This document shows positions 3,226 to 62,179 of a stretch of DNA of 64,000 bases, piece after piece. The notes beneath the pieces were generated by a model. The model worked only from the letters and a program-made list of their open reading frames with translations, searched no databases and was not told where the DNA came from. This DNA is from Patescibacteria group bacterium (GTDB taxonomy: Bacteria; Patescibacteriota; Dojkabacteria; J137): positions 175,645 through 239,644 of the forward strand of contig CAUJCN010000001.1 in NCBI GenBank assembly GCA_963169855.1. Reading direction: 5' to 3'. Position 1 is the first letter of the stretch. Each line of letters opens with the position of its first letter. Position numbers and translations under genes: made by a program.

Positions 3226-3492
3226 ATGAGTAGCACCGCAAAAAAATTCATTGCAGGAATTATAATATTAGTAGTAGGAATCTTAGTTGGGTTGACAGTT
3301 CCAACAGTTATTAAGAAGTCTCAAGATTTTGATAGATACGCAAAGGCCAGAGAAGCAGCACCAGATAAAGAAGAATTCGATAGAAATTTTGATGCGATGG
3401 TTCAATGGTTTGAAGATTATAAAACAAACAATCCTGGAGCAACAGACGAGGATGCACAAGAAGCTTTCGAGGAGCTTTGGGATCGAAATTAA
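3226..3492 (+). CDS. small membrane-anchored hypothetical protein
   Basis: 88-aa ORF with N-terminal TM helix. Confidence 0.4.
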   Translation: MSSTAKKFIAGIIILVVGILVGLTVPTVIKKSQDFDRYAKAREAAPDKEEFDRNFDAMVQWFEDYKTNNPGATDEDAQEAFEELWDRN

Positions 3493-13868: not shown

Positions 13869-14255
13869 TTATTTAAGTTTCCTTACTATTGAACTCTGAA
13901 TATATTCAATTTCCTTGACCTCAGTAAATAGAGGGTACAAAAGTTGATCTTTTGTGATCTCTATAAGTATTGATATCCAATAACTTGTTTCTCGCGCCTC
14001 CTTCTTTGCTATTTTCATTCTCATCTTGCAATCTCTTGTACCGAGGTTTTGATTAGCCTCAATATAGTTAGCGCCGATCGAACCGGAGCTTCTAATTAAT
14101 TGTTTATAGTCTTCGATCGTAATAATAGAAAGTTTTTTTGTTTTTACATATTGACGGATGTTTACAGCAAATTCTTTACATCTATCTTCTAAGTCATACT
14201 TCATTAAAGAATTGTACCTAATGCTAAACGGAATTGACACTCTATCGTAATACAT
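13869..14255 (-). CDS. four-helix-bundle protein (23S rRNA intervening-sequence protein family, TIGR02436-like)
   Basis: GSIGANYIEA...KEARETSYW signature. Confidence 0.65.
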   Translation of the reverse strand: MYYDRVSIPFSIRYNSLMKYDLEDRCKEFAVNIRQYVKTKKLSIITIEDYKQLIRSSGSIGANYIEANQNLGTRDCKMRMKIAKKEARETSYWISILIEITKDQLLYPLFTEVKEIEYIQSSIVRKLK

Positions 14256-21569: not shown

Positions 21570-21632
21570 ATTTGAAGAATACTACTAACCTCTGAGAAGT
21601 TCTTTGTCATGAAATACAAATTCCTTCTTTGT

Positions 21633-21657
21633 ACGGTTCGAGAGCCTCACCGTGACA
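21633..21657. repeat. hairpin repeat of same family, inverted relative to 21236-21263 (right flank of GIY-YIG gene)
   Basis: ACGGTTCGAGAGCCTCACCGTGACA; reverse complement matches left copy at 21/23 positions. Confidence 0.7.
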
Positions 21658-36641: not shown

Positions 36642-37775
36642 GTGAATGGTGATGTAACAAAAATTGATAGTAGGGATATTCCAGATTTTGACTTTCTCCT
36701 TGCAGGATTTCCTTGTCAACCATTCAGTGCTGCAGGTAATAGAAAGGGATTTTTAGATACTAGAGGTACACTATTTTTCGAGATTGAAAGAATATTAAAA
36801 GAAAAAAAACCTCAAGGATTTCTTTTAGAAAACGTTGAAGGACTAGTCAACCATGATAAAATCGATCCTAAAGCAAAGATGGGTAGAACCCTTGAAACAA
36901 TTCTCACTAAACTCGATTTACTTGAATACAAAACCTCTTGGAAAGTTTTAGATTCTTCAGAATTTGGAGTTCCTCAAAAAAGAAAAAGAATATATATAGT
37001 AGGTCATAAGAAAACTGCCATTGATTTAGAAAACTTTCCTAAGACGAAATCAAAATTAGATGAAATTTTAGAAAAGGGACTCGATGTTCTAAATACACCG
37101 TTCACAAACAAATTGTTAAGCAAGTTTAATGTCAAGGAACTTTACGGTAAATCTATAAAAGATAAACGCGGCGGGAATGAAAATATTCATAGTTGGGAAT
37201 TAGAACTTAAAGGGTCGGTTAGTAAGTTTCAATCCGAGCTACTTAATATTTTGCTGAAAGAAAGAAGAAAAAAAATTTGGGCTGTCAAAAAAGGAATTCA
37301 TTGGATGGATGGAATGTCTTTAACATTAGCCGAGATTCAAAGTTTCTTACAACCCAATCTCTTTCAAGAAGATAATCTGAAATCTGAATTAGATGATCTT
37401 GTTACTAAAGGATATCTGGTTTTCGAACACCCTAAAGATCTCAACTCATCTGGAATAAGAGATTACAGATATGACTTAGAACCAGGTTATAACATTGTTT
37501 CTGGGAAATTAAGTTTTGAAATCAGCAAGATTCTAGATCCAAATGGAATTTCGCCTACTTTAGTTGCTACTGATATCGAAAAAATTGCCATCCCTGATAT
37601 TAACGGGGTAAGAAGGTTAACTACTAGAGAAGGATTGCGATTATTTGGGTTTCCTGAAGATTTTCGAATAGATGTAAAAAAACGAGAAGCTTATGATCTT
37701 CTAGGAAACACTGTGGTAGTAACTGTGGTGCAGAAGGTTGCAGAAAGGATACTACAAAGTATTGCCAGTATGTGA
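36642..37775 (+). CDS. DNA (cytosine-5)-methyltransferase; homology continues in frame upstream to about 36444 without an ATG/GTG/TTG
   Basis: PCQPFS (motif IV), ENV (VI), QKRKR (VIII), GNTVVVTV (X); in-frame upstream codons encode KFIDLFAGIGG (motif I). Confidence 0.75.
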   Translation: MNGDVTKIDSRDIPDFDFLLAGFPCQPFSAAGNRKGFLDTRGTLFFEIERILKEKKPQGFLLENVEGLVNHDKIDPKAKMGRTLETILTKLDLLEYKTSWKVLDSSEFGVPQKRKRIYIVGHKKTAIDLENFPKTKSKLDEILEKGLDVLNTPFTNKLLSKFNVKELYGKSIKDKRGGNENIHSWELELKGSVSKFQSELLNILLKERRKKIWAVKKGIHWMDGMSLTLAEIQSFLQPNLFQEDNLKSELDDLVTKGYLVFEHPKDLNSSGIRDYRYDLEPGYNIVSGKLSFEISKILDPNGISPTLVATDIEKIAIPDINGVRRLTTREGLRLFGFPEDFRIDVKKREAYDLLGNTVVVTVVQKVAERILQSIASM

Positions 37776-38435
37776 CAAGTAATTTTCTTTTACTTTTACT
37801 AACCAATCACTGCTTGCTAATGAAGTCTTGGGGTATTTCATCAGTACTGAATAAAGAGCTTCAACAAAAGACTTCCGAGAGTCGAAAATCTTAAACTTGC
37901 TTTTACCTGATGGATTTCTAAATATACTTGCAGGTCTTATATTATAAATGACGTCTCTTTTTATTTGAAATCTAATTGCGTATCTTTCTCCAGGACAAGT
38001 TATTTCCCATATTTTTTTTAAAAAAATATTATTAACTTTAAAGATCCCCTCTCTCAAAGTGTATGAGAATATAAGGTAATCAGCATCTAGTCTGTATGAA
38101 TCTGAAAGCAAGGAGTCACAGTAGGATTCAAAGTTCGCAATATCAAAGTTTGCGTCGCCGTCGTAATCGAAAACCTTTATTTCGAGAAGATCTTTGGTAG
38201 TGCTCAACGGAGACATGTAAAAGTCTGGAAATTCTTGAGTATTCTCAGGAGATGCTGCTTCAATACCACTTTGATTCATCCATGCCAGTAACCAATTTTG
38301 AAAAATGTACCCAACTGCACTTTTGTCAGTTAAAGTATTAGATACACCTAAAAAATCAAATCGAGATTGTCCAGAATTCTCAAGAATCCCACTTTCTTTT
38401 AGTCTTTTTACAAGTTCTTGCGCTGTAATAACCAT
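37752..38435 (-). CDS. putative type II restriction endonuclease (convergent partner of the MTase)
   Basis: 24-bp convergent overlap with MTase; candidate PD-(D/E)xK element D...LLEIKVFD. Confidence 0.4.
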   Translation of the reverse strand: MVITAQELVKRLKESGILENSGQSRFDFLGVSNTLTDKSAVGYIFQNWLLAWMNQSGIEAASPENTQEFPDFYMSPLSTTKDLLEIKVFDYDGDANFDIANFESYCDSLLSDSYRLDADYLIFSYTLREGIFKVNNIFLKKIWEITCPGERYAIRFQIKRDVIYNIRPASIFRNPSGKSKFKIFDSRKSFVEALYSVLMKYPKTSLASSDWLVKVKENYLSHTGNTL

Positions 38436-39359: not shown

Positions 39360-41222
39360 TTACTCCCCCTTCCTCAACTCATACATCCTCACAATCTCCT
39401 CAACACTATTAGGGTAATCCTTATCTCGATTCCAAATCTTTAATCTTGGAAATCGAATAGACAACCCTTTTGTTGAATCATCGTTTTTTACTTTTGCAGG
39501 AATTCCTTTCGCTGCTGTGTGGTTTGGGCTTCTTGTAATTTCGTCTGCAACAATTTCCATAACTAATTTTGGTTTTACCCAAACGTCTGGAACTAAAGTT
39601 TTATCTACAACATAGTTTTCTGGTTTCTCGGCCACGAAATGTTTCTGTAAGTCTGCATTAATTGTTGGAGCTTGTTCATCTGTAAATCCGCTTCCAACTT
39701 TTCCAATAGAGTAGTAGGTATCGTTACTTGCATCGTAGACCCCTGCCAACATCGCACCAAATCCGTATTTATTTCTCGCACCTTGTCCGTAGAAATATCC
39801 CAACACAACAACGTCGATTGTATCTACCAAGTGACTTTGAGTATTAGCCTTCAGCTTAATCCATTTGAAATTTCTTGTTCCAGGTTCGTATGTAGATTTT
39901 TCTTCTTTAGTAATTATTCCTTCTAAACCTGCATTCACTTTGCTGAAGAAATATTCTTCCAACTCAGCTTCTGATTGCATTTGTTTTGTCTCCAGCATCT
40001 TTAATGAGCCCTGAGCTTTGAGCTTTGAGCTTTGAGCTTCCTCCTTAGAGTTCTGAGAAAGCAAAGACTCCAGTATTCTCAGCCGTTCCTCTATCGGTTC
40101 CTGAGTTATATCTTTTCCATTCAAATACAAAACATCAAAACACATTGCTCGGACAGGAATATCTTTTGCATAAGTTTCCACATCGTACTTTCTTCTTCGC
40201 TGCATTGTTTCCTGATAAGTTTTGTAATTACCATCTTCTTCTACACCAATAATTTCTGAATCCAAAACAACAGAATCAACACCAAGATTTTTTACAGATT
40301 CCAAAAGCTCTGGGAAGTTGTCTGTAAGTCTTTCCATATTTCGACTGTAGACTTCGGCCTCACCAGTTTTTTTATCAAAATGAATTTGACCACGTAGTCC
40401 ATCCAACTTTGGCTGAACAAAACACTTCGGCATTCTTTCCCAAACAGAAGCTGCAGAATCTTCTCGCTCCACAAGCTTAGATGCGATTGGAACTCCAGGA
40501 ACAATTTTAATTTTTGATAGATTTTCAATTGCTGAAGATTTATCAGTGAGAATAATTTCCGCAAGTTGACCAGCATCTGCTCTTGCTCCAAAAGCCTGAT
40601 CAATTAATTTTCTTGTAGATTTATCTCCAGACACAACAAAAGAAAGAGAGTCGAGTAGAGTTTTGTCGCTAGCACCAAGCCTTAAGTCTCCTAAAATAAT
40701 TCTAGTTGTGAATTTAATTTCCTGAGGTTCAAGAATTCTGAAAAGGTTTTCGTACAATTTTAATTTTGCATCTTGAGATCCTTTCCCAGAAGTTTGAGTT
40801 ATTTTAATTAAGAATGAGTGTAGTTCTTCGATAGTTTCGACTTTGATGTCTGTCACATCGAGCTTGTCGAGATGTGTTTCACCATTTTGGTTATCATGCT
40901 TCGACAGGCTCAGCATGACATCTCCTTTGAATGTTTCTCGAATTTCTGCTGCAACATTCCCCATATCCCCAAGTTTACCCAACATCGACTTAACATCTTC
41001 AGAAGTAAATTCCTGAAGTTTTCTGATAATCATTTTGTCTGAGAAGTTGAATTCAATCGGCTCGAATTTTGGTGCAACTCTACCTTGAAGAAAGTAGATA
41101 AAAAATCGAGCTTCTTTTGGTGAAAGCTGGGTTAGAAAATCCGCGGTTAAAGTGGTTAGATCGTTTCTAGAACTTGTGGTTTCGAGTTTGTTTAAAAAAG
41201 CTGAGAGTTCTGTTAGTTTCAT
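39360..41222 (-). CDS. ATP-dependent DNA ligase
   Basis: adenylation motif I KLDGLRGQIH, EGIITK, WIKLK motifs. Confidence 0.8.
   Translation of the reverse strand: MKLTELSAFLNKLETTSSRNDLTTLTADFLTQLSPKEARFFIYFLQGRVAPKFEPIEFNFSDKMIIRKLQEFTSEDVKSMLGKLGDMGNVAAEIRETFKGDVMLSLSKHDNQNGETHLDKLDVTDIKVETIEELHSFLIKITQTSGKGSQDAKLKLYENLFRILEPQEIKFTTRIILGDLRLGASDKTLLDSLSFVVSGDKSTRKLIDQAFGARADAGQLAEIILTDKSSAIENLSKIKIVPGVPIASKLVEREDSAASVWERMPKCFVQPKLDGLRGQIHFDKKTGEAEVYSRNMERLTDNFPELLESVKNLGVDSVVLDSEIIGVEEDGNYKTYQETMQRRRKYDVETYAKDIPVRAMCFDVLYLNGKDITQEPIEERLRILESLLSQNSKEEAQSSKLKAQGSLKMLETKQMQSEAELEEYFFSKVNAGLEGIITKEEKSTYEPGTRNFKWIKLKANTQSHLVDTIDVVVLGYFYGQGARNKYGFGAMLAGVYDASNDTYYSIGKVGSGFTDEQAPTINADLQKHFVAEKPENYVVDKTLVPDVWVKPKLVMEIVADEITRSPNHTAAKGIPAKVKNDDSTKGLSIRFPRLKIWNRDKDYPNSVEEIVRMYELRKGE
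40006..40040. repeat. heptanucleotide tandem repeat (GAGCTTT)n inside ligase CDS
   Basis: gagccct gagcttt gagcttt gagcttt gagcttc; encodes EAQSSKLKAQGSL on coding strand. Confidence 0.7.
40895..40920. repeat. hairpin-family copy embedded in ligase CDS
   Basis: CATGCTTCGACAGGCTCAGCATGACA; the 12-mer TCGACAGGCTCA is also at 47943 and, reverse-complemented, at 7569. Confidence 0.6.
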
Positions 41223-47936: not shown

Positions 47937-47962
47937 CATGGTTCGACAGGCTCACCATGACA
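47937..47962. repeat. hairpin-family copy upstream of alaS
   Basis: CATGGTTCGACAGGCTCACCATGACA. Confidence 0.65.
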
Positions 47963-55969: not shown

Positions 55970-56559
55970 AGAAATTGTCTATTAATTACAATGATTATAT
56001 CAAGAATTAGGGAAGGGTGATATTTGGTGGGCAATGTTCAACTACCCGGAAGCCACTAAAATTATACCAAAAGAATTTAATTTAATCTTCGTACTAGATA
56101 ATTTAGATAAAAATATTAAAAGAATCTCTCAAAAGTATCAACTTCCTAATAAAAACGCCTAATTTAGGCGATTTTGTATTGCAATACAATTGTTATCTGG
56201 CTTTTTGGTGCTATAATCCTTCAATTATTAAATCAGGACAACGTTTAACGCGAATACTCTTGAAAAATATATTGATATTAAAGAACCTCTAAATCTAGGG
56301 GAGTTTTTTGAGGCAATGGATATAAAGTTCTTTCTTCAGAAGTTACTAAAGGAGGATCTAACTCAAGATGCCTCAGAGTAACAATAGTTTCTACAGAATC
56401 AGAAGTTTCAACTCCTGTGGTATTGCACATTAAATGGATTGAGAGAGCACAAAGACTACTAGGTAAGCGTAATGAAATTAAGAATGGTACTTACATATTG
56501 CCAGGTACAATTGAATCCTAATTTCAGTTATTATTTAAAAGTATTTTTTAAATAAGTTT

Positions 56560-57168
56560 ATGAAACCTGTTCTTTTTGTAGATTTTAATGGTGTTATCTC
56601 TTATCAAAACTTCTGGAATAGTATTTACTCTGAAGACCATAAATTATTCAACCTTAGAAACGATATTAATACCTTTGTATTTGTTGAGAACAAAGACTTC
56701 GTAAAAGATTGGATGGTGGGGTTACATACTGCTGAAGAAGCTCATGATTTAATAAAAGCAAAATTTGATATTGATAAAGAATATCTATTTGAAATATTTA
56801 AGAAAGACGCTGAGACAATTGATGTATCTGAAAAAATATTATTGAAGTTACAAGAGTTAAAAAGTAAGTATAAGGTTGTAATGATTACCGATAATATGGA
56901 TACATTTACTAGATTTACACTTCCCAATAATCCAGAGATAAGTAGGACATTCGATGGGATATTCGTATCCTTTCATACAGGCAAATTAAAGAAAACTGAT
57001 GAAGGTAAGATCTTCAAAAATATTGTAAATCTATTCGATAGTAAATTAGAAGAAAGCATCCTAATCGATGACTCTAAATCTAACTGTGAACTATTCGAGT
57101 CTATTGGTGGAAAATCTATTTGTATTACCGGGGAGGATAAGATATTAAAAGAACTGAAAGCGCTTTAA
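56560..57168 (+). CDS. HAD-superfamily hydrolase-like protein
   Basis: motif I LFVDFNGV, motif IV LIDDSKSN. Confidence 0.45.
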   Translation: MKPVLFVDFNGVISYQNFWNSIYSEDHKLFNLRNDINTFVFVENKDFVKDWMVGLHTAEEAHDLIKAKFDIDKEYLFEIFKKDAETIDVSEKILLKLQELKSKYKVVMITDNMDTFTRFTLPNNPEISRTFDGIFVSFHTGKLKKTDEGKIFKNIVNLFDSKLEESILIDDSKSNCELFESIGGKSICITGEDKILKELKAL

Positions 57169-57410
57169 AGTCCTTGTCAGTAAACTAAAAACACTCTTGT
57201 TGTTGACGTTGTACTATAGCAGGACTTAAAAAAGATAAGCAAGAGATTCCACATAAGATACTTATTAAACTAAGGCTTCCTCATGAGATTATACTCGATC
57301 TACTAAGGACTTCCGAGTTTGATAATCCAGTTAAAAATCCAAAAAAGTCCAAAACTATGGCTCTAAATTCTAATATTAAAAAGGGGGAGTTCGGGGTAAA
57401 TGAACATAAA

Positions 57411-57486
57411 TGGTGCCAGGGGGCAGACTTGAACTGCCGACACCTCGCTCTTCAGGCGAGTGCTCTACCAGCTGAGCTACCCTAGC
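57411..57486 (-). tRNA. tRNA-Phe (GAA), CCA encoded
   Basis: manual cloverleaf: acceptor GCUAGGG/CCCUGGC, anticodon stem CUCGC/GCGAG, loop CUGAAGA, T-loop UUCAAGU. Confidence 0.85.
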
Positions 57487-57546
57487 ATGTCGAAGTATTT
57501 ATTTCCCATCTTCCTTAACTCTACCCCTACTACACAAAGTTTCGTA

Positions 57547-57624
57547 GGACTAAGATCTTCTTTAATTCGGCTACATTTCATTTGCCTCATTAAGAATCTC
57601 TTGAGCAGCTGAGCTACCCTAGCA
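57547..57624 (-). repeat. 78-bp tRNA-upstream repeat A, ending in a copy of tRNA-Phe nt 1-19
   Basis: 70/70 with one mismatch to repeat B, then CAGCTGAGCTACCCTAGCA identical to the 5' end of tRNA-Phe. Confidence 0.8.
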
Positions 57625-57767
57625 TTAAGTAAGATTCAAGACTAAAGATTAAAGATCTAAAAAAATTAAGATTTTTGAATAAAACCCACTTACTGTTTCA
57701 AATCTTCGTTTCAGAACATGACTTGCCCTTTTGAATCTTTGATCTTTCAGCTTTTAACTTTTTTTAA

Positions 57768-57840
57768 TGGGCAGTATAGGATTCGAACCTATGACCATCC
57801 CGGTGTAAACGGGGCGCTCTACCAGCTGAGCTAACTGCCC
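57768..57840 (-). tRNA. tRNA-Val (UAC), CCA not encoded
   Basis: acceptor GGGCAGU/ACUGCCC, anticodon loop UUUACAC, T-loop UUCGAAU. Confidence 0.8.
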
Positions 57841-57888
57841 AATTCGGGACTTTGTATTCTAACATTCTATTGGCTCTACTCCCTAAAG

Positions 57889-57966
57889 GGACTAAGATCT
57901 TCTTTAATTCGGCTGCATTTCATTTGCCTCATTAAGAATCTCTTGAGCAGCTGAGCTAACTGCCCA
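57889..57966 (-). repeat. 78-bp tRNA-upstream repeat B, ending in a copy of tRNA-Val(UAC) nt 1-19
   Basis: same 70-bp core as repeat A, then CAGCTGAGCTAACTGCCCA identical to the 5' end of the tRNA-Val. Confidence 0.8.
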
Positions 57967-58045
57967 TTTTGGGCTATCCCAAGATCAAATGATTAACTTG
58001 GTCTTGAGATTATAGCCGAAAATTCAAAATTCTTAAAGTACTAAT

Positions 58046-58699
58046 TTATTTCAATCTGAAACTCTTTACAATATCTTCCATCTCTTCTAACTCAGCTCTC
58101 TGTGGATTAGTTGTTAGAGTTAAATAGTACATTTTTCTTCCTTGTTCGTCAGGGAAAATGAATTGTTTCTGCAACAAAGCCACTCCATCTAGAACTCCAT
58201 TCCATTCAGTAACACAAACAATCACTCCGTTAATTCTCTGAACTGTTGCGGACCAATCTTCTAAAGAGTCATAGTAAGGTTGAAGTTCGTTAATGCTTGC
58301 ATCAACTAAATCGCTACATACTGATGCAGAAAATTCTAAGTAATCCTCAGAAGTAATCAAATTTAAATTTGGAACAAAATCTCCTTCTTCTATAGTTGCT
58401 GGATCTTGAGAGAAGATAAAGGTTATATCTTCGCTGCTTTCGTCAATGAAAAAATTTTCAGGAATAGCCATTCCGATATCAGAAGAATATTTTCCAGTGT
58501 ATGTGGATTCTTTATTATTTCCTACATCTTGATTAGAATCGTCAACTTTCTTACAAGCACCTTCAGATGGTGAAGTTAAAAGACCTCTAAATTTACATTC
58601 ATTATTAACTTCGATGTATCCAAACAATCCGAATCCCACAATTCCTAAAACTAAGAAACATCCAAAACACCCTAATACTATTAATATTGCTTTTTTCAT
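58046..58699 (-). CDS. secreted hypothetical protein
   Basis: 217 aa, N-terminal signal/TM. Confidence 0.45.
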   Translation of the reverse strand: MKKAILIVLGCFGCFLVLGIVGFGLFGYIEVNNECKFRGLLTSPSEGACKKVDDSNQDVGNNKESTYTGKYSSDIGMAIPENFFIDESSEDITFIFSQDPATIEEGDFVPNLNLITSEDYLEFSASVCSDLVDASINELQPYYDSLEDWSATVQRINGVIVCVTEWNGVLDGVALLQKQFIFPDEQGRKMYYLTLTTNPQRAELEEMEDIVKSFRLK

Positions 58700-61308: not shown

Positions 61309-61887
61309 ATGAGTTACTACGTCCCAACAGTTATTAAAAAGTCTCCAAGAGGAGAAAGAGTATACGATATTTACTCAATGCTTTTAGAATCTCGAATAAT
61401 CTTTGTAGGTTCAGGCATCAACGATGAAGTTGCAAACTCAGTTGTTGCACAATTATTGTTTTTAGCACAAGAAGATTCAGAAAAAGACATAGTTATGTAT
61501 GTGAATAGTCCAGGAGGATCTGTTTACGCAGGATTAGCAATTATCGACACAATGAATCATATTAAACCTGATGTAGCTACAATAGCAGTTGGATCTGCAG
61601 CTTCTATGGGAACAATGATTCTGACAAATGGAGCAAAAGGAAAGAGATTCGCTTTGAAGAACTCTACAGTTCATATTCATCAACCATTAGGTGGTGCAGA
61701 AGGACAAGCGAGTGACATCGCTATTACAGCAAAAGAAATTTTGAGAATAAAAGACATGCTTAAAAACATGTTGGTAGAGCAGACTGGGCAATCAGCAGAA
61801 AAAATCGAGAGAGATATGGATAGAGATTTCTTCATGACTGCAGAAGAAGCTAAGAATTACGGAATCATCGATAAAGTTATTGAATAA
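61309..61887 (+). CDS. clpP: ATP-dependent Clp protease proteolytic subunit
   Basis: catalytic triad context GSAASMG, IHQPLGG, DRD. Confidence 0.9.
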
Positions 61888-62056
61888 AGGCATCCTAAAG
61901 GATGGAAGATTCAAGACCAAAGATAAGAAGATTAAAAAGAAAAAATTTACCAAGAAGATTCAAAATAAGATTAGGATTCTTCAATAGTTCTTTGTGCTTT
62001 GATCTTTTAATTTTTGATCTTGAAAAAATAATTTGAAAAATTATTATTTTCTAAGT

Positions 62057-62129
62057 GGGTAGCTAGCTCAACTGGTAGAGCATTTCTTTGACGTAGAAAA
62101 GGTTACAGGTTCGAGCCCTGTGTTACCCA
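62057..62129 (+). tRNA. tRNA-Val (GAC)
   Basis: acceptor GGGUAGC/GUUACCC, anticodon stem UUUCU/AGAAA, loop UUGACGU, T-loop UUCGAGC. Confidence 0.8.
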
Positions 62130-62179
62130 TTAAAGTAAAATATTAAGATCCAAGATTCGAAGATTCAAAAATAATAAAG

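Follow-up and report, generated by a model that had tools for sequence, protein, structure and literature searches.

Partial 5′ copies of tRNA-Phe and tRNA-Val(TAC), interrupted by a two-hairpin insert, upstream of the intact genes in a Patescibacteria genome

Integrative elements that target tRNA genes reportedly duplicate, as a rule, the 3′ part of the tRNA, an observation said to go back to Williams in 2002. Bacterial MITEs and palindromic repeats, such as Correia/NEMIS, RUP, ERIC and the Rickettsia palindromic elements, are non-coding sequences of ~60-150 bp with a long imperfect palindrome; some of them carry outward promoters, some lie inside RNA or protein genes, and their presence varies among relatives. 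The arg2 islands of Klebsiella pneumoniae integrate at the 5′ end of tRNA-Arg, and their att site is made up of the acceptor 5′ half together with D-stem and D-loop (10.1101/2020.11.02.365908). Partial-tRNA repeats are also left by tycheposons and other tRNA-targeting elements (10.1101/2020.12.28.424599), and tRNA genes of Patescibacteria may be occupied by self-splicing group I introns, which sit in the anticodon loop at position 35/36 of the sole gene copy (PMC13011429).

The locus described here lies in a window (the whole stretch of DNA that was analysed, 64,000 nucleotides long) from a CPR/Patescibacteria bacterium that is known solely through metagenomes. This assignment follows from the labels of its MutL relatives: those at 38-48% identity that bear a name are labelled Candidatus Dojkabacteria, and the closest genome, L005 (MutL 78% identical), is a MAG labelled Candidatus Saccharibacteria. 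The att sites of Prochlorococcus tycheposons, suggested by the low G+C, were ruled out, the organism being a CPR bacterium. Besides the window genome, the comparison covered L005 and a second relative, L016 (MutL 65%); the assemblies of the relatives are the MAG GCA_964650085.1 (CAZYSE01) and GCA_964561155.1. The genes beside the tRNAs are ordinary chromosomal ones (MutL, DUF192, ClpP, ThrRS, a HhH-GPD glycosylase and DUF1801), the rest of the window encodes ProRS, ribonucleotide reductase, UvrC, AlaRS, an ATP-dependent ligase and an NgoBV-type restriction-modification pair, and Ku and LigD are encoded just upstream of it. A Pfam scan of 55 window ORFs, i.e. all non-overlapping ORFs of at least 120 aa plus one of 100 aa, detected no integrase, transposase or reverse transcriptase domains.

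Ahead of the intact tRNA-Phe and tRNA-Val(TAC) genes stands a 70-nt direct repeat (57547-57616 / 57889-57958; 99% identity), which occurs twice in the window, where shuffled sequences lead one to expect zero occurrences (coordinates of all parts are given in Table 1). The first-pass annotation had described identical 78-bp repeats; the 70-nt core with its single A/G mismatch at 57573/57915 stands, but the other 8 nt differ between the copies, each set being specific to its own tRNA, as that annotation had itself stated together with the gaps of 60 nt (tRNA-Phe) and 48 nt (tRNA-Val(TAC)) between repeat and gene. A core of 59 nt and CAGCTGAGCTA together make up the repeat; the latter is D-arm nt 8-18 in reverse complement and is the same in both tRNAs. 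The two genes are identical over nt 8-25, and the pseudo-copies are tRNA-specific only at nt -2 to 7. What had been taken for the first 19 nt of each tRNA is indeed a 19-nt match, but it consists of position -1 plus nt 1-18 (in Phe also -2), and tRNA similarity, as that annotation had overlooked, resumes past the insert with nt 19-25 in the Val unit and nt 19-24 in the Phe unit. Each module thus represents a pseudo-5′ third of a tRNA (nt -1/-2 to 24/25), containing the acceptor 5′ strand and the complete D-stem, and its D-loop is interrupted between nt 18 and 19 by a two-hairpin insert of 68 nt (Val) or 85 nt (Phe). The hexamer GTAGAG that marks the resumption has a frequency of 2.9e-4 per position in the window, corresponding to a chance of ~0.013 within the 45 nt available, and is found in 3/3 known modules. 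A connector with a constant length of 32 nt then joins the module to the intact gene.

Table 1. Positions of the parts of the two modules and of the tRNA genes, listed in tRNA sense
Feature	Position	Strand	Remarks
Sigma-70-like promoter TTAAGA-16-TATAAT, directed at the Val pseudo-copy	58009-58036	(-)	predicted
42-nt leader from promoter to Val pseudo-copy	57967-58008	(-)	first ~25 nt orthologous to the L005 leader
Pseudo-Val 5′ segment, exact (position -1 plus tRNA-Val nt 1-18, TGGGCAGTTAGCTCAGCTG)	57948-57966	(-)
Hairpin 1, Val copy (59-nt core), imperfect palindrome	57889-57947	(-)	arms kept in L005, apex not
Hairpin 2, Val, TCCC-TTTA-GGGA	57880-57888	(-)	uses the last nt of hairpin 1
GTAGAGC (tRNA nt 19-25), Val unit	57873-57879	(-)	pseudo D-stem with GCTC of the pseudo-copy
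32-nt connector, Val, TAGAAT-GT-TAGAAT	57841-57872	(-)	homologous to the L005-Phe connector
TGT-TAGAAT, proximal box of the Val connector	57856-57864	(-)	15 nt ahead of tRNA +1
tRNA-Val(TAC), intact	57768-57840	(-)	ARAGORN and Rfam; 100% identity to the L005 and L016 copies
Inter-unit spacer	57626-57767	(-)	last ~50 nt orthologous (72%) to the leader of the L005 Phe pseudo-copy
Pseudo-Phe 5′ segment, exact (positions -2, -1 plus tRNA-Phe nt 1-18, ATGCTAGGGTAGCTCAGCTG)	57606-57625	(-)
Hairpin 1, Phe copy (59-nt core)	57547-57605	(-)	58/59 identity to the Val copy, apex included
Hairpin 2, Phe, expanded to 22 nt (TCCTAC...GTAGGG)	57525-57546	(-)
GTAGAG (tRNA nt 19-24), Phe unit	57519-57524	(-)
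32-nt connector, Phe	57487-57518	(-)	most diverged copy; -10-like box degenerate
tRNA-Phe(GAA), intact, CCA encoded	57411-57486	(-)	ARAGORN and Rfam
tRNA-Val(GAC), third gene	62056-62130	(+)

Considered as direct repeats, the exact partial-tRNA segments (nt -1/-2 to 18) are spaced 125 and 137 nt apart, enclose 106-119 bp of non-coding DNA, and terminate at nt 18 within the D-loop, between GCTC and GAGC, that is, inside a symmetric stem-loop. The inserted segment (~105-120 bp) has neither a credible ORF nor terminal inverted repeats. Its right end, on the tRNA side, is unconserved and bears no sequence match to the left end; the sole inverted repeat is internal and is formed by the arms of hairpin 1, which match at ~15/20 positions by eye. 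If the element is taken to start with the D-arm-like TAGCTCAGCTG, the length of the target duplication is 8-9 bp (TGGGCAGT, ATGCTAGGG and TGCTAGGG); if it starts with CTCAAGAG, the duplication amounts to 19-20 bp (nt -1/-2 to 18). Neither tRNA-Val(GAC), whose D-loop reads CAACTG, nor tRNA-Ser(GCT) carries a module.

How, then, does this locus compare with the systems outlined above? As in the Klebsiella arg2 islands, the repeat comprises the 5′ acceptor half, the D-stem and part of the D-loop and ends inside the latter, and in both cases an intact tRNA gene follows downstream of the inserted DNA. The arg2 repeats, however, flank kilobase-scale islands encoding an integrase, whereas the repeats here flank ~110 bp of non-coding DNA with no integrase nearby; here, too, one insert is found at two tRNAs, and tRNA nt 19-25 resume after the hairpins. 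With MITEs the module shares its shortness, its lack of coding capacity and its variable presence, in this case across three genomes, but it has no terminal inverted repeats spanning the insert and only 2 copies in ~85 kb, and a target duplication of the MITE type (8-9 bp) applies only if the end of the element mimics tRNA nt 8-18, the alternative being 19-20 bp. The comparison with bacterial MITE and palindrome families was made by general description, and none of the collections searched yielded a sequence match. The group I introns of Patescibacteria are likewise non-coding inserts at tRNA genes in the same broad bacterial group; in contrast to them, the 68-85-nt insert sits in the D-loop of a truncated extra copy, is followed by an uninterrupted gene and has no Rfam match. 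Tycheposons resemble the locus in that a partial tRNA beside a full gene marks a past insertion and degenerate remnants persist, but they differ in carrying hallmark genes, whereas no comparable gene-bearing element is seen here. The first-pass annotation was fair in calling 5′-segment duplications unusual, but this has to be qualified by the precedent of the Klebsiella tRNA-Arg islands (10.1101/2020.11.02.365908). Altogether, the feature is genuine and structurally unusual, and is best classed among insertion footprints at tRNA genes, in this case with the partial-tRNA repeat on the 5′/D-loop side.

The two relatives allow filled and empty sites to be set side by side, a comparison that the earlier reading had already envisaged. 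L005 carries the same module upstream of tRNA-Phe, where it begins with Phe nt 1-11, a 22-nt insert of two perfect mini-hairpins and TCAGCTG, and continues with hairpin 1, hairpin 2, GTAGAGT and a 32-nt connector containing TGC-TAGAAT, after which the tRNA follows. Its tRNA-Val(TAC), by contrast, is 100% identical to the window copy and has no module but a TATAAT promoter ~20 nt upstream, and in L016 both tRNA-Phe and tRNA-Val are identical genes without the module, with a TATAAT box 10-17 nt ahead of +1. The module is thus an insertion or duplication that is variably present among related genomes: two species have it at Phe, one has it at Val, and the third has it at neither gene. A TTAAGA-16-TATAAT promoter is predicted upstream of the pseudo-copy both in the window (58036-58009) and at Phe in L005 (8659-8632). 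Attempts to reach further relatives ended early, as a search with ORF217 gave a single homologue, the contigs of MutL relatives at 66-76% identity stop before reaching the tRNAs, and the L005 methyltransferase, used as a search anchor, matched its own genome only. Three origins had been proposed at the outset, namely the footprint of a site-specific element, decayed tRNA duplications, or a conserved leader or processing module, and since the module is present in some relatives and absent from others, the first two are favoured over a general processing signal. The third did not fall entirely, for although the module is missing from relatives, the perfect conservation of its arms and junction implies some constraint.

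This conservation is markedly uneven. Between the Phe units of the window and L005, the pseudo-copy (nt 1-11) and a 27-nt junction block (nt 12-18 plus the 5′ arm of hairpin 1) are each 100% identical, and the 3′ arm of hairpin 1 is 91% identical, whereas the apex retains 48% identity (with the hairpin itself retained) and the connector 56%; the leaders preceding the Phe pseudo-copy in the two genomes are orthologous, at 72% identity (p < 0.0005). The two window copies, for their part, are near-identical only across the D-arm and hairpin 1, and hairpin 2 and connector of the Val unit are much nearer to the L005-Phe unit (38/51 aligned positions) than to the adjacent Phe unit of the window. Accordingly, the arms and the junction are subject either to constraint or to repeated homogenisation, whereas the remainder drifts.

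The reading that we tentatively favour, as the most plausible rather than an assured one, is that the repeats are a footprint left by a small, non-autonomous insertion module whose target is the shared D-arm and which duplicates the 5′ end of the gene. The module comprises ~105-120 bp of non-coding DNA between the duplicated segments, made up of a palindromic hairpin of 59-62 bp, a short second hairpin, GTAGAG(C/T) and a connector of 32 bp that carries a -10-like box. It would enter the D-arm-coding DNA between TAGCTCAGCTG and GTAGAGC, a sequence common to tRNA-Phe and tRNA-Val(UAC), and in doing so would duplicate the 5′ end of its target. The original 5′ end would be left upstream, on its native promoter, as the pseudo-5′ third, and a complete tRNA gene would be re-formed downstream because the duplicated stretch spans the first base of the tRNA. 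Expression of the re-formed gene could rely on transcription reading through from the promoter upstream, on the connector's TGn-TAGAAT box, or on both, and its 5′ end would presumably be trimmed by RNase P. Under the 8-9-bp reading of the duplication, the left end of the element would mimic tRNA nt 8-18; a target duplication of 19-20 bp is unusual among known bacterial transposases. The anatomy, the variable presence among relatives, the tRNA-specific duplication at two tRNAs and the conservation of the hairpin arms are observations; we infer the mode of duplication, the promoter activity and the processing, and the module may be, or may once have been, mobile in trans in the manner of a MITE.

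Several observations speak for this small insertion module. The tRNA-specific positions nt -1/-2 to 7 are rightly duplicated at two different tRNAs, empty sites with identical tRNAs exist (Val in L005, Phe and Val in L016), and a filled tRNA-Phe site is present in a second species, L005. Moreover, conservation of arms and junction over leader, connector and apex is the pattern to be expected if the arms matter to the element. The identity of nt 8-25 in the two tRNAs and the empty tRNA-Val(GAC) and tRNA-Ser(GCT) genes count in the same direction, as do the purely Watson-Crick pairing of hairpin 1, folds no stabler than shuffled sequence and the lack of Rfam matches. Could the second unit not simply have been copied from the first by recombination? 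Any crossover, single or double, that joined a Phe module to a plain Val gene inside their common D-arm would give a chimeric, non-functional tRNA, and a target-duplicating insertion is therefore the simplest solution. On the other side, the known copies number only three and all lie in a single rearranged locus, no partner enzyme is encoded among the 55 window ORFs, terminal inverted repeats are lacking and the right end is the least conserved, and the mosaic similarity among the copies is not predicted by recent transposition of the whole module. If the module is mobile, it would represent a tRNA-targeting insertion of very small size that owes its survival to the reconstruction of the essential target, with the 5′ end duplicated and a promoter brought along or reused. 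Its strategy would then mirror the one familiar from integrative elements, which uses the 3′ end, and would be met in a reduced CPR genome, a setting in which little is known of mobile DNA. Given three copies in two genomes, a wider importance is no more than possible.

The alternative that survives best, albeit an unlikely one, is a local rearrangement that dispenses with a dedicated mobile element. A tandem duplication of the tRNA 5′ part and its leader, or a decayed tandem tRNA copy, would have received a palindrome in the D-loop of the dispensable copy, e.g. through error-prone break repair, and the second unit would have arisen by duplication and gene conversion. Such a history would suit the confinement of all three copies to one Val/Phe locus that is heavily rearranged across all three genomes (with ORF217 in inverted orientation in L005 and three different contexts for tRNA-Val), as well as a host that encodes Ku, LigD and an ATP-dependent ligase. 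It would likewise suit a pseudo-copy that, in the manner of a truncated gene bearing an insert, goes on to nt 24/25 and has no clean end at nt 18, and the homogenised tract (D-arm plus hairpin 1) fits gene conversion between units that lie 342 nt apart. Whether the leader was duplicated along with the tRNA is answered differently by the two genomes: leader-to-leader similarity is significant in L005 (p = 0.0065), but a duplication reaching ~25 nt into the leader is unsupported in the window units by anchored tests (p = 0.12 and 0.55), the earlier high leader scores being due to the 18-nt tRNA match itself. Similarity to the tRNA is, furthermore, limited to nt 1-24/25, which is not what a decayed tandem duplicate should leave, and no similarity was detected between the connector and tRNA nt 26-76 (p = 0.18-0.97), so that a derivation of the connector from a decayed tRNA 3′ part was rejected. 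Finally, to place the same insert, in the same position and with the same connector, behind different but correct acceptor strands would need either two origins or a conversion free of chimeras, and perfect cross-species conservation of the arms is unexpected of neutral debris.

Slightly less probable is that the module is the relic or miniature of an integrative element of the tyrosine-recombinase type, which used the D-loop as its sublocation and carried a tRNA 5′ part plus promoter. The pseudo-copy would then be attL, i.e. the host's original 5′ end, the connector with nt 1-18 would be the element-borne attR, and everything else would have been deleted. Partial-tRNA repeats ending inside the symmetric D stem-loop have precisely the geometry of integrases, and there are parallels in the islands at Klebsiella tRNA-Arg, which have a 5′-side att ending in the D-loop (10.1101/2020.11.02.365908), and in Prochlorococcus islands, which commonly hold partial tRNAs of degenerated elements (10.1101/2020.12.28.424599). 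An element-borne connector would also be expected to look alike at different tRNAs, as it does, -10-like box included, at Val in the window and Phe in L005 (p = 0.02), and both the variable island at the 3′ flank of tRNA-Phe and the empty target sites in L005 (Val) and L016 (Phe and Val) would accord with such an origin. Yet no integrase is encoded in the window or between the repeats, which are separated by merely 106-119 bp, and the GTAGAG(C) after the hairpins is left unaccounted for. The two tRNAs pose a difficulty here as well: an element adapted to Phe that crosses over at Val makes a chimeric tRNA, and two separately adapted elements would have to decay alike.

A little less likely again, the module might be a functional transcribed leader, in which a pseudo acceptor/D-arm with two hairpins in its D-loop acts in cis on the pre-tRNA, for example as a processing platform for RNase III or RNase P, or by competing for the 3′ acceptor strand and so tuning maturation. 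That would make it a cis-acting tRNA mimic of a new kind. The promoter predicted upstream of the pseudo-copy is strong and conserved in both species, the pseudo-copy matches the tRNA at 100% where the adjoining leader stands at 72%, the junction and the arms are conserved at 100%, and the apices diverge in sequence yet stay hairpins, all of which would be in keeping with a role of this kind. RNAalifold, in addition, pairs GCUC of the pseudo-copy with GAG(C/U) as a D-stem. The same tRNAs nevertheless occur in close relatives without the module, behind ordinary short leaders, which shows that it is not required. The predicted folds, moreover, are no stabler than those of shuffled sequence (z = -1.3, -1.8 and -1.1), and double changes affect just 3/30 predicted pairs among three sequences, two of them near-identical, with no Rfam family to which the leader could be assigned. 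Hairpin 1 contains Watson-Crick pairs only, with bulges and without G-U, and would therefore form equally on either strand or as DNA, which leaves strand, and RNA versus DNA, indistinguishable. Still less likely is that the module is a maintained, transcribed tRNA mimic whose 5′ strand is kept by selection, be it for an action in cis on tRNA maturation or as a target-matching RNA for a partner whose gene lies elsewhere. It is highly improbable, lastly, that the module encodes a guide-like RNA, in which the hairpin scaffold and the 18-19-nt tRNA-gene match (5′ and in tRNA sense on the minus strand, 3′ and antisense on the plus strand) would steer a nuclease or recombinase encoded elsewhere to the D-arm: a scaffold beside a target-matching segment does resemble the guide RNAs of transposon-encoded systems, and a plus-strand promoter-like site, TTGACT-17-TAAGAT, points to the pseudo-copy in the L005 module, but conservation of this site does not extend to the window copies, the window contains no TnpB-, IscB-, IS110- or Cas-like gene, a scaffold of this kind is very short, and harm would be expected if an essential tRNA gene were self-targeted.

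Further copies of the module were sought at several levels. With an nhmmer profile built from the three modules, no others appeared in ~100 kb of non-redundant sequence from the three genomes; the window genome has 2 copies in ~85 kb (the window and 10 kb on each side), and all three known copies sit in one locus of two related genomes. The core, which the first-pass annotation had proposed to look for at other tRNA genes, did turn up at tRNA-Phe of L005, but at no other site in the window, in the 10 kb on either side of it or in the remaining L005 and L016 sequence covered. In Rfam, even at E <= 10, only tRNAs were recognised and no group I intron, all other matches falling far below the gathering thresholds. 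A core 24-mer (arm plus the variable apex of the window type) had 0 matches in 185,579 species genomes, and blastn with the whole unit gave no match in phage and plasmid collections. The conserved 20-mer of the arm had 1 match in IMG/VR and 2 in JGI metagenomes, which were rejected as module copies and attributed to chance, as they lie inside coding regions with no tRNA nearby.

The repeat also has practical consequences. Logan contigs of the window genome end inside it, i.e. the 70-nt repeat breaks short-read assemblies exactly here, and the pseudo-5′ ends could pass for att sites or split tRNA genes. A Logan unitig from another sample (L003) ends 20 nt before the Val pseudo-copy and not within the repeat. 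Two minor likenesses may be recorded separately. The leader upstream of the Val pseudo-copy has a marginal resemblance to a collapsed copy of the hairpins (p ≈ 0.05), and the 22-nt two-hairpin insert in the L005 pseudo-copy resembles the leader and 5′ end of tRNA-Val in the window, a score equalled in 5/500 shuffles.

From the 3′ end of tRNA-Phe to the DUF1801 gene extends a variable island, its length and gene content differing among the window, the related MAG contig L005 and the more distant relative L016 (see table); in none of the three was an integrase seen between the DUF1801 gene and tRNA-Phe. The surroundings of tRNA-Val(TAC) have been rearranged, this gene having a different context in each of the three genomes. 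Here the membrane-anchored orphan ORF217, for which a single homologue was found among 5.8 billion proteins, is inverted in the window relative to L005, and the window lacks a 69-aa ORF of the ‘Fuseless’ family that both L005 and L016 carry upstream of mutL.

The module at tRNA-Val(TAC) (the Val unit), which L005 lacks, may itself vary between strains. A Logan unitig from SRR24928211 ends ...CATTTGATCT, at window position ~57986, i.e. 20 nt ahead of the Val pseudo-copy (the stranded copy of the tRNA 5′ end), and this break may reflect a strain polymorphism at the site where, compared with L005, the Val unit is ‘inserted’. In three other samples, the unitig ends 19 nt inside hairpin 1, the 59-nt core of the two-hairpin insert that splits each pseudo-copy, matching the expectation for a 31-mer graph. 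The Phe pseudo-copy of L005 is interrupted by a 22-nt insert composed of two perfect 4-bp mini-hairpins, CCCCAAAGGGG and CCACTTTGTGG; it occurs only once within the 22-kb locus and is weakly similar to the leader plus 5′ end of tRNA-Val in the window.

Locations of the features compared or described in the text
Feature	Sequence	Coordinates	Remarks
Variable island	window	55984-57411	1.4 kb; orphan 202-aa ORF
Variable island	L005	100-8342	~8 kb; glycosyltransferase, NUDIX, methyltransferase genes
Variable island	L016	3026-9380	~6 kb; 1858-aa surface protein
22-nt mini-hairpin insert	L005	8535-8556
tRNA-Val(TAC)/ORF217 region	window	58046-58699 (-)
tRNA-Val(TAC)/ORF217 region	L005	8728-9384 (+)
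tRNA-Val(TAC)/ORF217 region	L016	950-1714
33-nt motif	window	57631-57663; 61906-61938
26-nt hairpin-forming repeat	window	21632-21657; 40895-40920; 47937-47962
25-nt match	window	3298-3322; 61321-61345
88-aa ORF	window	3226-3492
Ku and LigD	L026	2295-5640	~4-8 kb upstream of window start
ATP-dependent DNA ligase	window	39360-41222 (-)
C5 methylase and endonuclease	window	36642-38435
PF05635 gene	window	13869-14255 (-)

Just upstream of the window (L026), the same genome encodes a non-homologous end-joining system made up of Ku and LigD, the latter a multidomain protein (ligase plus Prim-Pol); an additional ATP-dependent DNA ligase, separate from LigD, is encoded within the window. This complement is notable given the reduced CPR genome, and these genes are possibly relevant to the origin of the odd junctions.

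The 33-nt motif AAGATTCAAGACyAAAGAT... adjoins the Phe pseudo-copy at one of its two sites and lies ~120 nt upstream of tRNA-Val(GAC) at the other, in opposite orientation relative to the respective tRNA genes. Its 19-nt core pattern is exact at these two sites only; allowing 3 mismatches yields three further matches in the window (0.15 expected), of which one overlaps the first site and the other two lie elsewhere. The window further contains three copies, 73-100% identical, of a hairpin-forming 26-nt repeat, CATGsTTCGACAGGCTCAsCATGACA.

The window also encodes a type II restriction-modification pair, the convergent and overlapping genes for a C5 cytosine DNA methylase and an NgoBV-type restriction endonuclease, and a member of the 23S rRNA intervening-sequence protein family, which does not lie within an rRNA gene. 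Finally, a 25-nt match (92%) pairs the start of the 88-aa ORF with that of clpP; this ORF may represent an N-terminal fragment of ClpP or a ClpP paralogue.
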